Shown here: one piece after another, positions 823 to 43,238 of the stretch | Layout: every line of letters begins with the position of its first letter | How positions within the stretch are numbered: position 1 is the first letter of the stretch | DNA from: Sphaerodactylus townsendi | Taxonomy: Eukaryota | Direction of reading: 5' to 3' | Assembly: GCF_021028975.2 (NCBI RefSeq) | Contig: NC_059426.1 | Coordinates: 142,228,001-142,292,000, forward strand | Length of the DNA stretch: 64,000 bases | Notes under the pieces: model-generated | The model's input: the letters and a program-made list of their open reading frames with translations, nothing else | The model's database searches: none | Told to the model about the DNA's origin: nothing | Position numbers and translations under genes: made by a program

Positions 823-27376
<26,554 letters not shown>

Positions 27377-30300
27377 GGCTGCTCCTGCGCCGCCTGCTTG
27401 CCTGGGGCGGAGGAAGAGGGGAGAAGCTGCCCCGCCGGGGGTCTAGAGGAGATGGGGAGCCTCGGAGGGCTGGAGGCGGCCAGCAGCTCCCTCCAGCAGC
27501 AGCTGCAGCAGCCTCCGCCAGAGATCCAGCAAGGATCTATTAGCGCGCATGCGCGAACCCCCTTTCCCCAGCCTCAGACCAAGCAGGAAAAGGGTCCCCC
27601 CTGGGCTACCCCTTCACCGGCCTCCCGGAGGCCTCTCAACCCCCGGGCGCTCCATGTCGGCGGCTGCTTCTGTTGACCCGGAACCACTTCGCCGCTGCTG
27701 GCGCCGTTACGTCCCGCAACCGGAGGCGGGGCAGAGAGAACCCCAGGAGCTGATGGCGGAAGGGGACGGGAAGGATCGTGCCCGTCTTGAGAATGATGGG
27801 TGGGAGCAGTTGGGCGGTGGAGCTGTGGAGGGTCTCCTTTAGCGTGGCGCTCATCACTGTAAAGGCACCATAGGGACGCCGCCTTCTTCGCAGAGACCAG
27901 TGAGAAAGTTGCCACTGCTCTTTTAACACACGAGTTCATATATAACGATTGCAACTCGTTATAAACATGCTGTGTGGAATCCACTAAAGAGTTGGTTGCC
28001 GGATAACGACTCTCGCAGTGGGAAGAGGCCGCAGTAGCCTCTCCAGTCTTCATTCATAGCAAAACCTAAACCACGTAATACCTTTAATGAAGTCCAGCGA
28101 AGACAGCCCGTGTTTGATTTATGCAGCACTCAGCATGTTCCCGACCACTATAAGGCGCTGTCTTGTAAAAATTCTGCGTGCGAGGAATAGTGATGGCCAG
28201 AGGTCTAGGATTAGGCAAATTGATGGAAGAGAGGTCTGTGGCTACTAGTCATGAACTTCCTCAATCAGAAGCAGAAATCCTCTGAATCGCAGTCCCAGGA
28301 GACAAAATCAGGGGAAGGCCTTCATCACTGAATTGTGTTTTAGCCATAGGAAGTAACTGGTTACACTGTGAGACAGGATGCTGGACCAGGTGGACCACTG
28401 GTCTGATCCAACAGGGCTCTTATTGTGTTCTTATGACCAGGTATGCTGATTTAACATGGTGCTAGTGTTAGATTTTTCATGTCCCTAATAAGCCAGCTGA
28501 CTTTAAATAATAAAACTCTCCTCTGGCTAATGCCATGTCAGTATGTAACAGCAGTTGATGGCATTGTTGTCCAGATCTTCAGAGGAATTTGAACCCAGGT
28601 CTATCAATCTCAGAGAGTGAAGGAAGGAACAGTAAAGAGATGATGGGGAAGGTGGAGAACTTTCCCTGACTTTTTCCAGCAAGCATGTTGGTTATTTTGA
28701 TTGTTTCCAGGCCAAAGATAAGCAACTTTTTGATTCATGTTTAGTGTGTGTGTGAGGTCACATGTTAAAATGTAAGCTGACCTAAGATAGAACATATTTG
28801 TAGTTTTACATTCTGGTTATATGCTTTAAATGTTGTCTCTGTGTTTGTTGTTTTGTAGCCTGCCTTAGGTACTTTAAAAGAGAGAGAGGTCAGAAATGTT
28901 TAATATAAATAAATACTATACCCTATTTTATTTATTTAAAGCATTTAGTAGCCACATTTCTGCCTTATAGTATTCAAGGTTGCTCGCAGTATAATATCGG
29001 CCAGCAACAGTATGCATTGTTTGGATCTCCAGTCAAATACTAAATCCTTTTTTATTTTTTTAAAAAAGGAGAGTAACATGAATCTATAACCTGATTAATT
29101 CTTATTCTTATTTGTAAATAATTTGATGAGAATACTTTGTTTCTATTGAAAATGCATTATTCAATCAGGCTTTATACTATATAGGTAAGAGGAAAAAAAC
29201 CAATATCTTTTAGATCTAAAAGGTCAAAGTATATTGCTTTCCCTTGTTCTTTTTTCTCTTTTATTATTTTTTTAAACTGTATTTCATAATTACTGTTGTA
29301 GATGAGCCCAGTGATCAGACCAGGAGTCCAGGTGTTCTTCATACTGTGGCCAACTACTTGCCCTGGAGAACTCTGCAGACAGTTTTGCATGTTATCAAAG
29401 AGTTTTACAGAAAATGATGAAATCACCAATCTACAAGTCTTAGTGGGAGTTGGGTTCAGGCACAGATTGTGACCTCAGAAAAACCCATCATGATGTAGTG
29501 AGTAGACTGCCTGATTAGGATCCAGGAGGGTTAGGATTGAATCTCAACTCTGCCATGGAAGTCATATACACATAACCTACCTCATAGGATTGCTGGGAAG
29601 ATACAGAAATGATGTAAAGCTGTTTTGGGTCCCCATTGGGGAGGAAGGTGCTGTATAAAGGAAGTAAAATAATAATAAAATGATTTATCCATTTGTGACA
29701 AGCATAACATCAGAAAATGAAGCTATGATTCCCAAGTCTCCAAACTGGTCATGAGTTTCATTATGATTATAGGAGTTGCAGTGTCAAAAATGAGGGGAAT
29801 CAGAACCTCCTGTCTCAGACTGTGTTCAGAATGCCTCCCTCATGTTCCTGTTTGCAATAGAGGTTAAGGTTGCTTGTTTTTGGCAGGCATTAACTCAACA
29901 GAAAATGAAGCTAGGTGCCTTGCAGCTGGCCAGCAGATTCCAGGTGATGGAAATTGCAGAGCCAAAAATGAAAGAGATTGTTATTTCCTGGCCTAGATTT
30001 ATACATCCCTCTGCTTTTTGCAAAGGAAGCAACTTTTTACTTACAAAAAACAAGGAAGCCAGAGGTAACACAGACAGGGAAGGTTACAGAACAATGGGGG
30101 TTAACAATTTCTCTGATCTTCAGACTGTGTAACTATGATCTAGGAGACCTGGGTTCTAATTCTCACTCTCTCATGGGAACCTTGCTTGGGCTACTCAGCC
30201 CAAGGTTTGTTGTGATAATAAAATGAAGACAAGGACAATGATTCAAGCTGCTTTGGGTTCCCCAATCATTGGTGAGGAGGGCAGGGTATAAATGGAAGTA

Positions 30301-31389: not shown

Positions 31390-31751
31390 ACATAGAACAT
31401 CACAAAAAAACCTGTTCAAGCAATTATAATAAAACATTGGCACCTCTTGTCTAACAATTGTAATAAAACATTGGCACCTTTTAATAACCATAATAATGAA
31501 AAACCTCTGAGACAGGTTAGAGAACCATAGACAGGGAGAAGTACCAGATGGTATAAATGGTAAGGGGAGGACAGTATGCCGCTGTTGTATGTTGTGTGGG
31601 AGTGCAGAAACAAACAGAACATTTCAGAAATCATGCAGTGCCAAGATTTTTTAGATGCTCATGTAACAACTGTAATTCAAAGGAGGTAGTTTGTGTTATT
31701 CAGTGTCACTGGAATTTGTTCTTTTTTGTCATTCTCTTCTATTTTGTTAAC

Positions 31752-32229
31752 TGTAGTCGACCCACGTGGTCAGCGTAAGAACGAGACGAGACGCGGAGAT
31801 AACATCTGGTGGAGATCGCCAGCAGCGGGAGCCCGGAGGTCCGTGTTCCTAGCGAGTCTCCCGCGTGCTCGCTCCTGGCACCTTTTATTGTTATTTTATC
31901 GGGGGCGTGTAGGAGGGAGGACCGGGGGAAGTTCCGGGAGAGCGGGAGGCGAGGTCGAGGAGAGATCATCATGCTTGATGCATGATCTCACCTGGCTCAC
32001 GCGGCTTGGGAGAGGAGCCGTAAGCTGTCTGAGCCTAATCCTCACCTGGGGGCAAGACTCATTGTCCCTGCGCCCGGTGACTGAGGCCAGACAGTTCATG
32101 ACCCGTGACTCATAGGGGGGATGAGGAGTGGGGAGTCGCGGTCGCGACCAGAAGGTCGTAAGGTCCGTTAAGGCGTCCCAACGTTTCTACCACGGTGTGC
32201 TGTTGCTGGGTCAGCAGTGCATTACTACA
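31752..32229 (-). repeat. 3' LTR of provirus
   Basis: Preceded on the minus strand by a purine-rich tract; AATAAA at 31884-31889. Confidence 0.95.
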
Positions 32230-32247
32230 TCTCCTCGCTTACATTTT
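32230..32247 (-). other. Polypurine tract
   Basis: AAAATGTAAGCGAGGAGA immediately before the TG of the 3' LTR. Confidence 0.8.
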
Positions 32248-32299
32248 AGAAGGGGGACGGCGGAAATGCTAAGGGGTGATTTAAGGGGACGCTTTGTCT

Positions 32300-33891
32300 C
32301 CTCCGCCCGTCTGGTCAAGCTGACCGAAAGCTGCTTGTGTAACACATCAGGAGGAACTTGGTTAGCGGGGTAAGCGAAATTCGAGGGAGCTTCTTACTAA
32401 TAACACACACGTTACAGGCAATATTAGACACACATTGAACGTAAACAAGATCCGATAACGAGGCACACAATTAAACCAATGCAGAGCTTGCACAATAAAG
32501 CACTCAACCATCCTCCCGGCAGCCAGCTCCGGAGGGCTGACCACCAATGGGGCAAAACATCATATTTCAGATTAGATACAACTTCTTGCAGCCTCACGTG
32601 ACTTCATATGGAATCACAATTGCAGGAATTATCAGGAAAGATTAAAAACAACACATAGCCCATGCTTGCATTCTCACAACCTTGGTGATGTAATAACAAT
32701 AAGTAATCAATAAGCGCACGATTGTCTAGGGTCAGCTTGAGCAGCCCGAAAGTTCCTGCTGCTTTCGGAGGAGCCAGAGCCGTCCAGAGCAAATGTGGAG
32801 GTAGAGTTGATGGACTGCGCAAGGGCACAGGCCAGCCCGGCCAATAGTCTTAGCATTGTAAGAAGGCGAGTCCGGGGACTCCCACCAGGGAAGTGCTGCG
32901 TAGGGAGACGAACTCCCGCTTGGGAGAGGGCGAACGCGTCAGCTCCGACAGCGGAGGGGCTCGAGAGCAGCAGAGCGAGCGGCGGCGGCGGGCGTCCGGG
33001 CTCCCGGGGTGGGAAGCCTGGGGGTAGGGACGATGAGTGAGGCTGACCGAGGGCAACAAAGAGTTCCGGCAGAGAGTCGGGCGGGGAATGTAATTAAGCG
33101 TTCTCTCCCGCAGGTCCAGAACCAGCCCCTGGGGAGCAGGATGTTTCCGAACATGGGGAATGTCCTCCGTGTGTGCAGTATTCCAATTACCGGAGCCGAT
33201 GAATGGGCCCGGGTCGGTTCCCCGTTTCGCTGCGCCCGGTGATGCGAGGCGCAGGTGTTAGATTCGTGGGTTAGCTGGACAGTCTTGGTGACAAGGGAGA
33301 GAGCCGCCAGCCGGGAGGGTTTAGACGACGGGTCCCCAGTCGGCTCATAGAGTAACACCTGATGGATGGCCAGCGGTGGCATTCATGAAGGGGCTTCAGC
33401 CCAGACTCCGCTAGGAAGTCTCCGGGCGCTTTGCAGACGGGGAGCAGGCAGGAGCTTAGCAGCTCCCCGACTCCTCAGGTACTGGCCCAGGCAGAAAGAT
33501 GAGACGTTGGCAGCGGCAGCAAACTGCTCCCAGATGTTGGCCACCTGGTGAAAGCTCGTCAGGGGGTGGCCGCATCATGCCATCGGCAGGAGGCAACAGA
33601 GCAGGCAGCGGATGGTGGCCGCCCGAGGTTGGCGGTGATGATCGCAAAGCAGAGCGGCACAGAGGAGTTCCTCGGAGATTGTCTCGGGGTGGTCTTGCTG
33701 GCGCAGCAGCTCCTAGGAGCTTGGCTGGTGAAGTGCGCCTTGACGTCTCCCAGGTCATTCGGGTCTTTGGGCGTTGGCGGCGGCGTTCCTGTTGAGACCG
33801 CTGGGCGGGATCCTTTAGAGAGATGTGTTCCATCTCCGGGATGGGGTTGGTTTCCTCCTGGCGCCATCTCCATGGGTTGGCAGCCTGTCAT
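32300..33891 (-). pseudogene. env: ERV env (frameshifted as assembled)
   Basis: Leader MTW.DVK..TSQA.ELLRQQ...AII; SU end LPRGWFWTCG; furin site RRRRS (~32978-32992); ISD-like LDNRALIDYLLL followed by GCENASMG-CCF; hydrophobic anchor ~32400-32500. Confidence 0.82.
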
Positions 33892-33990
33892 GGCGAATCG
33901 GAGTCCACAGGGACCCAGGAAGAGGGACTGAAACACACCCCCTTTCCCCAGGTTATGGGGGGCGAGGTCCCGCCAGGCTCAGTTCTAGAG
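33880..33990 (-). pseudogene. Remnant of integrase C-terminus containing the probable env splice acceptor
   Basis: ITWGKG..VSVPLPGSLWTPIRH resembles the beta-type IN tail (TWGRGYACVS...PLWVP.R); GTGTGTTTCAG acceptor, AG at 33929-33928. Confidence 0.6.
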
Positions 33991-34899
33991 CTGGATGGCG
34001 GGGAGATCGGGATCGGGTTTTTGTTTGAGTTGGGGTTTTAGAAGTTTAGGAGTTTAATATAAGAAGGCTTGTTTTGCAGTCTGTGAAGGTTGCTTTTAAT
34101 GCAATCCTCCTGGGGGCCGCCTACTTACCTCTTTCTTTAATTGTTGTTTGACAGGGAGGGCAGGAGGTAGAAGCGACCCTGAGTGGGAATCTGGCTTCAG
34201 AGCGTCATCAGGGCTGCGTCAAAGGCCAGGGTCCGAGCCTCGGTGGGGAGGGAAACAGAAGCGGGTCCTGGGGGGGATTGTGGGTATGCATGCTTAATCA
34301 GCAACACAAAAGCGGGCTTCTTGGAAGCGCCTTTTAGGGGGGATGGGTGCATCCGGAGAATGATGCAATCGAGGCTTTTATTAGAGGCAGATTCCCCGCA
34401 CACAAAACAAAAGGGGGGGGGTTTTCTTTGCAAGGGGTTTGCACCTTACCGTCGGGACCTTGGTGGCTGGGAACGCAGGAAGCTGGATGGTGCTAAAATT
34501 CTTTGTGCGGGATCCCGAATTATCTTGAGGAATTGCCGCCGCCGAGACCGCCTTCCTTAAGGGGCGGTTTGCTAAGCGCTTCTGGCCTTTTTTTAACGTG
34601 GTACCTGATAAAGTTGCCAGGCGCTGGGCAGCCATAACCCAAACGCGGTTTTGGGTATTAGGGGCATAATGGTGGCAGCCCCTTTTTAAACTGGGGCCTG
34701 TCCTGACAGTGCTGCGGTATCAGGACGGGCCCAGATTTTAAATCCAGGGAGGGCCAGTCAGCCAATTGGCCCTCCGCCTCTACTGAGTCGAGAAAAAACA
34801 GAAGGGGAGGAGAGGAGGGGAGAGGGAAACAGTTTTCTACGGGAAATTCAGGGAAAGTAATTTTCGAGGAAGGCACGATTGGGATCAATGATCTGTGGA

Positions 34900-35745
34900 C
34901 GGCTTTATCCATCCCAGGAACCAAAGTCGCTTTTGACCTGACTCATGAGGTCCCTTCCCCAGAGATTGACGTGGGATGTCTAAGGCAGCGATGGGAAGCG
35001 GACTGTGAGCTGCCGCTCGAAGTCCTGGGCTGTTGACCGGGTGAGCTGAGCGGATGCTCCGTCTACAAGCTGTTTGTCTTCCCCCCACCCCCCAGATGTC
35101 GCGAGGGCAAGTTCCTCGGTGCGGCCACTGGTCGGGCCACTCGGCTGCTCTGATGACGGTAACATCAGCGCCCGGTGTCCACCAGGCTCCTTGAACATAC
35201 ATCCTTCTATGGCGAAGCCGCCCAGGTATGGGCGGGAGCTCCCGATAGGCGTCTCCACCGGCTGGGCGCACGGTGGTGGTTTTAGGCGCTGCGCCATGTT
35301 GGCTGCTGGGGCTTGTAGCCTTTATTGGAGTGAAGCAGCGGAGCAGCGCATGGGGCAAGAAGGAATCAACTGAGCGCAGCGCTGGCTCCGGCAGGCAACT
35401 CCTGTGGGATGTTTGTCCAGACTCTGGAGATGGATGGGTCCGCTTGGTGCTGCGGAGTTACGATCACTCCGGGGACGGCGATAGACAGTCCCTGTTCAGC
35501 GGCAGAGGCCTTTGGCAACACTCCAGCCCAATAGTCCCCGCGTATTAGGGATGGGCTCTGCCATACTGGGTTGGGGCGACAAAGAACCTCGGGTCGGGGA
35601 ACTTTTAAAGGAGATGGGCTGGAGTGCATGCGAAGCGATGATGCCACGATGAGGGGGGTGGTTTCGGCAGGGGCCTTGGTGTTTGGGCTCTGCTCTAGTA
35701 TTCCTCCTCCTTGGTCCTGGGCTGGGGAGACGCGCCGAGCGGGAG
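34900..35745 (-). pseudogene. pro: ERV degenerate dUTPase plus aspartic protease (frameshifted)
   Basis: GVLPKASAAEQGLSIAVPGVI (dUTPase motif 2/3-like); [24 protein letters not shown] (~35130-35195, after frame repair); IWGVGG flap; NLWGRDLM (~34945-34970). Confidence 0.85.
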
Positions 35746-37394
35746 TTTCCTCGACGGGCAGTCGCTTTCTCCAGTGGAAGCCTCTTCTGGCATCGTGGGC
35801 ACCGCCGGTTTTAGGGTGGCCTTCTCACTCCTGAGGGAGGACCCTCCTCCATCGGGGTTGTAGAGCCCCCCCTTTACCGGGCTGCTCTACACTCCCTTCG
35901 GAAGTGTCCGGATCTGCCGCAGTTAAAGCAGTCATCCTGGAGGCTGCCTCCCCGCCGGTGGAGGAAGTGCTGCGGCGAGGGAGTGCTAGCTTTGTGGGCT
36001 GGAGGATCCGATGGTCCTTGGCAAGCCTTAAGCATGTCGGCTAAGTTCAGGATTTTTTTGCCCAGGCCCGTGCATTGTTCTTGGCGGCACCTCGCCGTGG
36101 AGTATGCGTTCTCTTTATGCGACGCATGAGAGGAGCCTCGCTTTTGGGCCTCTTACCGCTATCTACCTGCCTCTTTGAGCGCTTCCTGGAGCCTGTTCAC
36201 AAACTGCGGCGCATAGGGCTCTTGGGGGTTTTTTTTGCCGGATGGTGGAGAAAACTCTGGGTTGGCTGGCCGGCATTGGGGACTTTGATAAATGCCTTTA
36301 TAGGCGACACTCCAGAAGGCGCACCGGTGAAGGGTGGCCTTCAGGCAGGATCGCGAGAGATCTGATCGTTGGGGTTGGCGAAGCATCGAAACCGGTAAAG
36401 CTGAGCGGCTGTGTAGGCGCCGCCGAGGCGGCCCCCCTGCTGATGCATTGCTGGCGGAACTCGGGCTTTCCCCAGATCAGCAAATTGTGCAGGGCTCAGT
36501 GAGCATCGCGGTAAAGGGTGGTTTTCCAGTCGCTCTGGAACCATTATTAGGTGATTCCTCGGGCGATTGCCTCCCAGCATGCCCTCTCACGTAGGGGCTA
36601 GTGATTCCTACGCCTCGTGACGCTTAAACTGCGGAGCTCGCAGTGAGGATGTTATAGCGTTTAAAAGGGCGGTACTCGACAACCCATTCCGCCTAATGAC
36701 GCACCCTCCCCCCCCCCGTATCTGTGAAATGGACCGGGGCATAATGCAAGCAGATATCGGCATCGCTCTTCCTCGCCAGGGTTTCTTTCTTCTGCAGGAT
36801 CGGCTTGGCTAATACGCTCTGGCGAGAAGTTTTGAAACCCGCGCCATTACGTGGCGTTTCGACGGAGAGTGCGAGTGGCTTCGGAAAATGAAGGCGAAGC
36901 AAGCAGGGAGGCATTGAGCGGCGGAGAGAGTTTGAAATGGGCTGTAAGGGCGAGCAAGGGGGGCAGAAGGAGGGACAGGCGTCCAATTTAGTGGGATAGG
37001 AGAAAATTCCGGGGTTGAAATTGAAGGTGAAAGATCGAAGGAGGCATGCGGACTCTACAGCAAGGGGAGAGCCATGAGAGTCTGCAGGCTGATGGCATGA
37101 CATAACATTGTCTCCATCGCCAGTAAGTAGTGACATCGGTGCTTGGCTGAGGGCTCTGTGCGCCTTAAAGAGTGCGCCTCGGGATGTTTTCCTGCAGTCC
37201 TTAGTCCCAGATTCAATGTCCCCCCCCCTCTGGGTACCCGGCTGGACACTGAGCTTCCAATCTCCTCAACCAGTTTCGCGCGAGCTCCCTTCTCTTTACC
37301 CAGGGGACCCTGCGCATTTCGCTAACGGCTTTCAGGTTCGCTTCAACGCGTCCTTAAGTCATAAGCTCCTGCTTTTTGCAAAAACTTTTCCCAT
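35690..37394 (-). pseudogene. gag: ERV gag (frameshifted as assembled)
   Basis: MG start at 37394; matrix motif YPEGGTLNL; capsid ITSPYVRG; MHR-like QEPYA-QFVNRLQEAL (~36180-36240); zinc knuckles CFNCGRSGHFRREC (35889-35930) and CPRCQ..FHW..DC (~35757-35801). Confidence 0.88.
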
Positions 37395-37581
37395 ACCTTC
37401 ACCACGGTGTTCCTGGTCTGGACGCAGAGAGTGTCCTAGGATCCAGCGTGATCTCTTGGATGCGCCCGATCCAGAGGGACAGGCGATACCGAAATGGTGG
37501 TCCCTGGATGCGCCGATCCAGCGGACTTCGGTATCGCGGCCCTTTCCCAGGCGACGGTGAGCAGGGTGGAGGTTCGAGGAT

Positions 37582-37599
37582 TCCCGGGTTTCGGCACCA
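37582..37599 (-). other. Primer-binding site complementary to tRNA-Phe 3' end
   Basis: Minus-strand TGGTGCCGAAACCCGGGA, an 18-nt complement of vertebrate tRNA-Phe(GAA) 3' end including CCA, 3 nt from the LTR. Confidence 0.93.
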
Positions 37600-37602
37600 G
37601 CT

Positions 37603-38055
37603 TGTAGTCGACCCACGTGGTCAGCGTAAGAACGAGACGAGACGCGGAGATAACATCTGGTGGAGATCGCCAGCAGCGGGAGCCCGGAGGTCCGTGTTCC
37701 TAGCGAGTCTCCCGCGTGCTCGCTCCTGGCACCTTTTATTGTTATTTTATCGGGGGCGTGTAGGAGGGAGGACCGGGGGGAGTTCCGGGAGAGCGGGAGG
37801 CGGGAGGTCGGGAGATCATCATGTGATGCATGATCTCACCTGGCTACGTGCGGAGAGGAGCGTAAGCGTCTGAGCCTAATCCTCACCTGGGGGCAAGACC
37901 ATTGTCCCTGCGCCCGGTGACTGAGCCAGACAGTTCATGACCCGTGACTCATAGGGGGATGAGGAGTGGGGGTGCGGTGCGACCAGAAAGCCGTAGGTCC
38001 GTTGGCATCCCAACGTTCTACCACGGTGCTGCTGGGTCAGCAGTGCATTACTACA
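37603..38055 (-). repeat. 5' LTR of provirus
   Basis: Direct repeat of 31752-32229; adjacent to the PBS; contains AATAAA and an AP-1 (TGAGTCA) site on the minus strand. Confidence 0.95.
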
Positions 38056-38287
38056 GTTAACATTGGTTATTGTTTCTTTGTTCAAGTCACTGGAATGCTG
38101 CATTTAGACTTCTGATTCTATTTCTGTCATCTTTTACTTTTGCTTCTCATCTGACATTAGCAATTTTAAGGATGTCATCAGTCATCCATTGAGGCTTTAA
38201 TTTCTTTTTGCTACAGGAATAATCTTTGTGCATTCTTCTATAGTAATATCTCTGGTTTCAACCTATAGTTTTCTAGGTGCTATTCAC

Positions 38288-38749
38288 TGTAGGGGTGAGC
38301 CCGCGAACCCAGCAGAACCATAGACAGAGCGCCTGGAATGCCGGTGCCAGCTACGGCCTTCTGGGCGCACACGCTCCCCCAACCCCCGCTCCCCCGTGAG
38401 TCACGGGTCATGAACTGCCTGACTCGCGGTCACCAGGTGTCCCATACAAAGGGACAAAAGGGCCCCTGCCCTCAGGTGAGGATTAGACCCAGACGCGGAT
38501 GCTTCCTCCTGCACGTAGCAGCCCGATGAGATCATACATGATGATCTCCTGTTCTCCCGACCTCCCACTCTCCCGCCTGTCCGACCCCTTTACACGCCCC
38601 TAATGAAACCCTAATAAAAGGTGCAAGGGATGAGCACACGGCAGAGTTGCCAGGATCACGGGATCCCGCGCTTCCTGCTACTGGCTCTCTCCACCAGATG
38701 ATATCTCCGCATCTCGTCTCTTCCTTGCGGCGTCGCGGGCACGACTTCA
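38288..38749 (+). mobile_element. Solo LTR of a related ERV subfamily, opposite orientation to the provirus
   Basis: TG...CA ends; 6-bp TSD ATTCAC (38282-38287, 38750-38755); shares blocks with the proviral LTR (ccaccagatg.tatctccgc.tctcgtctc, tcacgggtcatgaactg, caggtgaggattag, aataaaaggtgc). Confidence 0.9.
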
Positions 38750-42554: not shown

Positions 42555-43238
42555 CAGTGGGGGGATTCTAATTTTTTAACAACTGATTCAGGGGGGGCCC
42601 CGCCATGTGCCTCCTGCCGCATGCCACTGCCGCCCACCTACCTGGCTGCAGTGCTCCCCTTTTCCATGTTGGGCTGGGGGGAGACAAGAGAAGGCTGCGC
42701 CTTGGCCTGAAGGGCCCGCGTGCCTGGGCTGGAGGCTGGAGCCCTGCTGGAGGTTGGCCAGGCCTCCTGGCTGCGCCGCAGTGGCCTTCTTGGGTTACGG
42801 CAGTGGCTGGGAGGCCTGGGCAGCCTCCATGGGAAGGAAGGAAGCCCCAGCCACCCCCCTCCCAAAGGCTTGCGTCCGGCTGCTCGCCGACCAGAAGGCC
42901 AAAGCCTGGCGCCGTGGCGCTTTTGGCTGGCGGCTGGGGCTTTCTCCAGCACAAGAGTCCTTGCCTCGTCCCCCAGCCAGCCAGGCAACCTCCTTATGGG
43001 GAGGAAACCCCAGCAAACTCCCAGCCAAAGACCTTGGCCTTTGGGCTGGCGGGCAGCCGGGTGCGAGCCTCAGGGGTGCGGCTGGGGCTTCCTCCCCCGA
43101 GTTGAGGATTCCTGTGCTCCTTCTAAGGGCAGGTGCTGCAGGGCCTCTTTGCTGTAGGAGTACCGGTTTGGCGAACTAGCTACAAATTTAGCTACCGGTT
43201 CTAGTGAACCGGTCTGAACCAGCTGAATCCCACCTCTG
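42555..43238. mobile_element. hAT non-autonomous element with GC-rich interior
   Basis: TIR CAG(T/A)GG(G/T)GGGATTC related to 1614-1805; TSD (A/G)GCACACC. Confidence 0.75.

Follow-up and report, generated by a model that had tools for sequence, protein, structure and literature searches.

How can a provirus that lacks a polymerase gene have spread, and apparently spread recently, in its host genome? This question is raised by an endogenous retrovirus (ERV) on the minus strand at positions 31752-38055 of a 64,000-nucleotide stretch of Sphaerodactylus townsendi DNA (assembly GCF_021028975.2, contig NC_059426.1, positions 142,228,001 to 142,292,000); we refer to this whole stretch as the window, and all window coordinates count from its first letter. 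An earlier note, made from the letters alone, had proposed a non-autonomous reptile lineage that keeps its particle and envelope genes, has replaced pol with other sequence and borrows Pol from a helper. Our analysis places the element in a family, here called A, that encodes Gag, dUTPase, protease and Env and carries a cassette in place of pol, and it brings to light a second family, B, that carries pol and lacks protease and the surface subunit (SU) of Env. The two families possess complementary gene sets that jointly hold all genes, their architectures exclude each other, and they share the long terminal repeat (LTR), the primer-binding site (PBS) and gag. We consider it likely, with a probability of about 0.7, that A and B are mutually complementing halves of a two-component endogenous retrovirus, a reading that we draw from sequence comparisons. 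Going beyond the earlier note, the donor of Pol is itself defective, the A lineage is old, and what stands in for pol is a structured RNA without coding capacity, flanked by conserved sites that resemble splice signals.

The absence of pol is the property of a lineage. A genome search with the cassette region, in which 40 candidates were scored, gave at least 43 matches, 35 of which are near full length, and an exact cassette 25-mer matches the genome 535 times. Among the other two-LTR A copies, 24 of 26 possess their own target-site duplication (TSD) of 5-6 bp (the rest being one tandem and one copy with an unresolved boundary), which bears out the proposal of a non-autonomous lineage as opposed to a one-off deletion. 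Out of 140 protease matches, 40 were chosen to spread over 79-99% identity; 39 carry the cassette without pol, and the loss is accordingly shared across the lineage, with L126 as the exception that has pol. In clean A copies, gag is open over 518 aa, the dUTPase-protease frame over 275 aa and env over about 534 aa, as Pfam confirms. In the oldest A copies, recognisable pol ends at about residue 96 and restarts at about residue 728, with the cassette in between. Since the cassette already sits between the two pol stumps in these copies, it was present from the start and the stumps eroded around it: residues 1 to about 96 are kept in the oldest copies, then 1-46, and the youngest retain no 5' part. 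One derivative, L058 (G000:C2:92.93 Mb), is a 3.3-kb two-LTR element with its own TSD that has kept env; its pro and cassette block are gone entirely, and so is the greater part of gag.

The pol-bearing half was found by a search with the pol of L126, which gave 85 matches. Young B copies agree with A in LTR, PBS and gag and contain a single frame of 1,596 aa that runs from Gag to integrase (IN). Pfam recognises matrix (MA), capsid (CA), one zinc knuckle, reverse transcriptase (RT), thumb, RNase H and three IN domains in this frame, and neither RVP nor dUTPase at E<=1; the frame yields no free Gag. CA and RT lie in one frame at 12 B loci. The Gag parts of young A and B copies are nearly the same, with identities of 87/89 for MA and 175/195 for CA. 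How the protease was lost can be followed in the genome: early B copies (L136, L143, L151, L152 and L153) have an in-frame pro-pol fusion with an altered WGRD motif, later copies hold protease remnants of 26-59% identity, and the subsequent ones hold no protease. SU is gone from the B env and the transmembrane subunit (TM) is kept. Some B copies (L151:6168-7160, L149 and L132) possess an open SU-less env of about 330-370 aa in which the signal region is joined to the furin site and TM; it could represent a functional protein made of TM alone, or could have been imported from A. An exact RT motif has 123 matches in the genome, some on unplaced tandem contigs. Several small unplaced contigs (G000 C84, C486, C570, C508, C1269 and others) show head-to-tail A and B proviruses with one LTR between them, probably collapsed-repeat assembly products that inflate counts.

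The mutual exclusion of the two gene sets is evident from a census of 146 loci classified by noise-tolerant DNA queries. The cassette block is present in 79 of them, none with an RT or IN core, 77 with protease DNA and 73 with SU. A pol core is present in 60, none with the cassette block and five with SU; the remaining seven are fragments, deeper deletions or another family. Further pol loci, chosen by the exact RT motif, were without protease core, SU and cassette block in 20 of 20 cases, and 19 of these 20 match the B linker, so that SU occurs in five of the 80 pol-bearing loci inspected overall. Both protease motifs upstream of RT were seen in L126 and L150 only; L191 has DTG and SU, and the rearranged L166 shows protease motifs. 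All four of these complete-type loci are broken in the assembly. The LTRs of L126 and L150 are 24.5 and 28.7% distant from the young LTR, the LTR pair of L191 differs by 8.6%, and these loci may be ancestors or old recombinants. A search for pro-pol junctions gave seven among 40 scored, five of which turned out to be early B. No young complete provirus was met among the 80 inspected pol loci, a partial list from one noisy haploid assembly.

A and B have evolved together. For the trees, 72 copies were chosen: 36 A, 29 B and seven labelled complete, of which five were subsequently assigned to early B. In the LTR tree, built from 65 rows, 19 label changes are required for A and 18 for B, and strong branches force 14 and 13 of them; the tree of 5' gag requires 19 A/B label changes, 10 of them forced, and the TM tree 12 and 9. 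The two families pair in about seven subfamilies that succeed one another. Each of the 29 B LTRs is closer to an A LTR than to a complete-type LTR, 26 of 30 A LTRs are closer to a B LTR, and one young A copy and one young B copy (L021 and L134) have identical LTRs; complete-type LTRs are confined to the oldest clade. Distances in genes possessed by one family alone also follow the LTR, with rho values of 0.81 for A protease, 0.89 for A SU, 0.78 for B RT and 0.71 for B IN, which are descriptive as kin share history. A LTRs differ by up to 28%. Both families have young copies: LTR pairs no more than 0.5% apart account for seven of 38 clean pairs in A (63 found) and four of 15 in B (34 found), and distances range up to about 6%.

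Each half is under selection for the genes that the other lacks. The ratio of nonsynonymous to synonymous substitution rates (dN/dS), given as the median over pairs with dS >=0.1 among copies with open full-length frames, is 0.18 for A gag (16 of 36 copies), 0.12 for dUTPase (22 copies), 0.07 for protease (29), 0.15 for SU (26) and 0.10 for TM (30). The earlier statement that the lineage keeps its particle and envelope genes thus extends to purifying selection on gag, pro and env. The decay of a parasite's remaining genes, which is expected for a classical helper pair, is not seen, as the A genes lie at 0.07-0.18. In B, the values are 0.26 for gag (13 of 29 copies) and 0.08 for both RT (11 copies) and RNase H-IN (8 copies), and 0.90 for the former protease linker (10 copies), which is neutral. 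The codons beside the lesions likewise show constraint: dN/dS is 0.05 over the final 30 protease codons of A, which adjoin the cassette (33 copies), and 0.09 over the initial 40 pol codons of B, which adjoin the dead linker (21 copies). Because a hidden helper is least likely to renew these codons, selection on them points to the use by each family of its own enzyme. The constraint on SU suggests spread by cell-to-cell infection.

The window provirus is organised as follows, read from its 5' to its 3' end.

38056..38061, no strand: target-site duplication GTTAAC, 5' side, 6 bp
37603..38055, minus strand: 5' LTR, 453 nt, TG...CA; common to family B
37582..37599, minus strand: PBS for tRNA-Phe(GAA), three bases inside the 5' LTR; also in B
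35695..37394, minus strand: gag, with MA (MG start), CA and two zinc knuckles; broken by extra bases, a 518-aa frame in clean copies
34905..35810, minus strand: dUTPase-protease frame overlapping the end of gag; DTG motif near 35179; clean copies have a 275-aa frame
34783..34820, minus strand: polypyrimidine tract plus CAG, predicted splice acceptor; in 65 of 72 cassette copies
34450..34782, minus strand: non-coding exon-like segment, strongly folded; 203-423 nt among copies, mostly about 310
34689..34782, minus strand: conserved two-hairpin block of 94 nt; column identity 97% in 38 copies
34542..34573, minus strand: hairpin with self-complementary CCTTAAGG loop; arms resemble the PBS and its complement
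34443..34449, minus strand: predicted splice donor GTRAG; in 59 of 72 copies
34113..34147, minus strand: purine-rich block from integrase DNA, kept while the IN sequence around it is eroded
33892..34042, minus strand: eroded integrase C-terminal remnant; includes, about 24 nt upstream of the env ATG, the predicted splice acceptor for env
32241..33891, minus strand: env, 534 aa in clean copies
32230..32240, minus strand: short polypurine tract, just before the 3' LTR
31752..32229, minus strand: 3' LTR, 478 nt, TG...CA; extra bases in its 5' half
31746..31751, no strand: target-site duplication GTTAAC, 3' side, 6 bp

Much of what the earlier note had recognised at this locus holds. The TSD, both LTRs, the tRNA-Phe PBS and the polypurine tract are all in place, and the genome itself contains three tRNA-Phe(GAA) genes that match the PBS. 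A noise-tolerant DNA search of the element detected no RT or IN core; the IN tail alone remains. The CpG dinucleotides had been described as retained, and their observed/expected ratio is indeed 0.63-0.94 in the element vs 0.15-0.23 in the two flanks. The two LTRs differ by four substitutions and 20 gap openings, and the resulting substitution distance of 0.9% is consistent with the recent integration that had been suggested; the stretch of identical LTR sequence, put at 177 bp, is in fact 200 nt long. As to the genes, the gag, dUTPase, protease and env regions could be identified, the last with a long Arg-rich signal peptide, SU, a furin site (around 32990) and a gamma-type TM with a CX6CC motif (around 32678). 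None of them forms a long open frame in this copy, in which no frame exceeds 190 aa, and a Pfam search of 28 window frames recovered zf-CCHC and a weak RVP only. The frames are most likely broken by long-read error that went unpolished: clean A copies differ from each other by just 5-7 indel events, whereas comparison of the window copy with three clean sisters gives 305-313 small events of extra bases (499-511 nt, mostly of 1-2 nt), 30-33 missing-base events and 1.8-2.2% substitutions. The extra bases spare the 5' LTR. The true element length, taken from clean copies, is about 5.84-5.86 kb. Short-read contigs of four runs cover 30 of 30 bins of a clean A copy, cassette included, and the 12 indels listed from them, out of 20, sit in the LTR, in the cassette or just before the 3' LTR. 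In the neighbourhood of the provirus, a solo LTR of the same superfamily (38307-38729, plus strand, 72% identical) lies in opposite orientation 250 nt from the 5' LTR, and the window contains three further GC-rich islands (17858-18913, 27001-28000 and 42580-43179), the first of which holds an internally repeated ORF-like stretch (ORF, open reading frame).

What, then, is the cassette? When compared by blastn and tblastx with a pol-bearing relative, it matches in the IN tail and the 35-nt purine block only, so that pol has been replaced by other sequence, as had been proposed. A degenerate pol is ruled out by these searches and by the oldest A copies with their separate stumps. Nor is it a protein-coding accessory exon, because the lengths of 203-423 nt keep no frame; a 159-aa ORF of one copy has no match in Pfam and is broken in another copy. 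A LINE-like fragment with endonuclease and RT pieces on the opposite strand lies inside the cassette of one A copy (L124:3440-7430). Between the acceptor and the donor, which follows 203-423 nt downstream, the segment folds with a z of -6.96; in six of six diverged copies, z is -4.8 to -9.1 vs -0.1 to -2.6 in neighbouring controls. The first 94 nt keep their column identity across 38 copies with a synonymous divergence of about 0.5, and in this block 97% of cells pair, with 11 cells in three pairs changed on both sides. Rfam has no match for the element beyond one sub-threshold chance match in 5.85 kb, and a covariance model of the 94-nt block run against 44 sources gave nothing convincing in B or complete-type loci (best E 0.12 and 2.5). 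The second hairpin has a palindromic loop in all 15 copies listed, flanked by arms in which 9 nt match the PBS and its complement; it is duplicated in L093 and L101, and its arms are altered in L110, L119 and L161. To judge from its sequence, it could be an element for dimerisation or PBS pairing, or could have arisen by chance. The purine block at 34113-34147 is possibly a central polypurine tract or a splicing enhancer. As a predicted leader donor and env acceptor are also present, the acceptor-donor segment could be an internal exon of the env mRNA. No joint at a predicted splice site occurs among the 15 of 124 joints listed from contigs of four runs of unrecorded kind, which is evidence neither way.

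The complementary gene sets lend themselves to a simple model. Gag-Pol enters retroviral particles through its Gag part, orthoretroviral maturation requires the viral protease, which releases RT and IN, and recombination takes place between co-packaged retroviral RNAs. A cell would transcribe A and B from their common LTR; A would supply Gag, Gag-dUTPase-protease and Env, and B a single Gag-Pol fusion with RT and IN, which would join the A Gag lattice via its near-identical MA and CA. The A protease would then free RT and IN from the fusion, in which the dead protease of B would be an open spacer only, after which each of the two RNAs could undergo copying and integration. Were A and B RNAs packaged together, switches of template between them would prevent their LTR, gag and TM from drifting apart. 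For its part, the cassette would likely act in cis on the fate of the A RNA, be it the balance of splicing, its export or its packaging. The fuller account, in which A and B are an obligate pair whose complete ancestor was lost, which exchanged LTR and gag over about seven subfamilies and whose structural half gained an RNA exon, is one that we hold at somewhat better than even odds.

Several observations weigh against the two-component reading. Five pol loci have SU, and three of these (L126, L150 and L166) have protease motifs as well; some breaks in such complete-looking loci could be errors of a noisy assembly. The census is partial, as 21 of 41 newly listed chromosomal RT-motif places are not included, 16 further pol places are classed by query range only and 23 of the 123 RT-motif matches are unlisted. 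Pairwise dN/dS values are non-independent and come from open-frame copies only, 7-30 per gene. The B TM remnant has a dN/dS of 0.18 (seven copies), which the model accounts for solely as import from A. Covariation in the 94-nt block is thin, and both-side pair changes are not above shuffles (112/500; cells 0/500). Co-expression, co-packaging and processing of A and B are inferred from gene content and selection. Finally, one haploid assembly is compatible with a complete virus that is unassembled, polymorphic or exogenous. This last point leads to the principal alternative: A and B might be separate parasites of a co-evolving complete helper, itself exogenous, polymorphic or unassembled, that renews their LTR and gag by recombination. 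A complete helper is the usual arrangement, as described for the C and D elements of cattle in the parts of PMC10924933 on which we draw, and complete-type loci do exist here. Yet their LTRs lie far from the young LTR and in the oldest clade only, five of the seven pro-pol junctions belong to early B, and such a helper would not require constraint on the codons that adjoin the cassette or the linker. No fully coding, present-day helper with the LTR of A and B turned up in our partial census, in which complete-type loci are few, old and broken, and we regard this alternative as unlikely.

Dependence could also run one way, with B as a self-sufficient intracellular retrotransposon, unprocessed or served by a host or other protease, and A as a parasite of its Pol. 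Loss of SU is a known route to intracellular retrotransposition, and the long B frame stays open with a constrained gag (0.26). The genome moreover contains an unrelated young ERV with long frames, L189 (G000:C6:45.53 Mb), whose 640-nt LTRs are 97.8% identical and whose frames comprise a 789-aa pol piece and a 503-aa env-like one. Its pol, however, is only about 30% identical to that of B, and it has a different LTR and another PBS; young B copies have one zinc knuckle, neither free Gag nor a protease, in a group in which maturation needs the viral enzyme, while their LTR and MA/CA stay in step with those of A. We think one-way dependence quite improbable. That pol is missing from the window locus alone, through post-insertion deletion or misassembly, could have been suspected from a copy so full of assembly-type errors; it is refuted by the 535 cassette matches, the independent TSDs and the short-read contigs of four runs that span a clean A copy with its cassette, and has next to no probability. 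The earlier idea that Pol is borrowed in trans is supported by the pol-bearing relative with the same LTR and PBS, a relative that itself lacks protease and SU.

In the usual view, a retrovirus has a single component and a defective ERV lives as a parasite on a complete helper. If the two-component reading is true, we have before us a natural case of a monopartite virus displaced by two complementary defectives, with the intermediate stages surviving as a dated series in one genome, so that one can study directly in which order functions were lost and what part co-packaging plays. An ERV family without an intact provirus need then not be dead, and screens for ERVs that rely on pol would miss the larger half (535 vs 123 motif matches) and misread the smaller.

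The family resembles class II (ERVK/betaretrovirus-like) ERVs with a gamma-type env in its Gag_p10, its dUTPase ahead of protease, its ERVK-like RT/Pol and its CX6CC TM; unlike these, it has a tRNA-Phe primer and a split genome, and the placement rests on domains and similarity. The first 100 aa of Env have no match in Pfam; the signal peptide, with its Arg-rich stretch and TW motif, may resemble the Rec/Rem type. The nearest named proteins come from turtles, a lizard and a snake (40-44% for Env and 52-54% for Pol, turtle proteins), and these homologs are all that suggests the reptile affiliation proposed earlier. Sea turtles (P0001-P0008) possess many near-identical env homologs at 40-44%. 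In their gene models, splicing leads from gag or protease to env just where the env acceptor is predicted here. Caretta models connect env with protease or gag, one Emys model connects gag with pol, and these joined models look like spliced predictions.

Among the literature covered, with most subscription journals outside it, we found no retroviral precedent for a two-component split. Theory holds that two complementing defectives can eliminate a complete virus (PMC10223652, in the part consulted here); among plants, pararetroviruses and one family of retrotransposons have been put forward as such cases. Defective ERVs that live off competent ones are well represented by ETn/MusD, IAP I-delta-1 and recKoRV (as cited in PMC10924933). 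Bovine ERVK[2-1-LTR] D and C elements share with A and B a swapped centre, trans-complementation and recombination between types; according to the relevant passages of that paper, D has no intact genes and a complete helper, whereas A keeps gag, pro and env under selection and its donor is defective. The canid CfERV-Fc1(a) (PMC6407205) and the chicken EAV-HP (PMC4607243) are likewise defective proviruses spread by complementation or a helper, but their lesions, as far as these accounts describe them, are scattered and shared and do not form two stable, complementary and co-evolving architectures. Closer parallels come from plants. The wheat Sabrina/WHAM elements have gag and protease without RT or IN and have long co-evolved with a partner; this partner, Wilma, is portrayed in the passages of PMC9744471 as fully autonomous and as having little sequence in common with them, unlike B. 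In wheat Fatima, RT and integrase reside in one subfamily (RLC_famc1.1) and Gag and protease in others (1.4/1.5), a split proposed from ORF content for a plant LTR retrotransposon without env; A and B add tests by selection and trees, a Gag-Pol fusion through a dead protease and an RNA cassette, none of which figures in the Fatima passages (PMC6097303). Florendoviruses (Caulimoviridae) come nearest in form, with two components that miss complementary domains, have near-identical cis regions and are read as co-evolving halves of a genome; the pertinent section of PMC4241990 calls this bipartite state unique among viral retroelements and retroviruses diploid, not bipartite. Florendoviruses are plant pararetroviruses without active integration or envelope, whereas A and B are integrating, enveloped, LTR-bearing and young (compared with the same section of PMC4241990). 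Collectively, these comparisons suggest that the two-component state has precedents in plants and that, within the literature covered, its retroviral form appears to be new.

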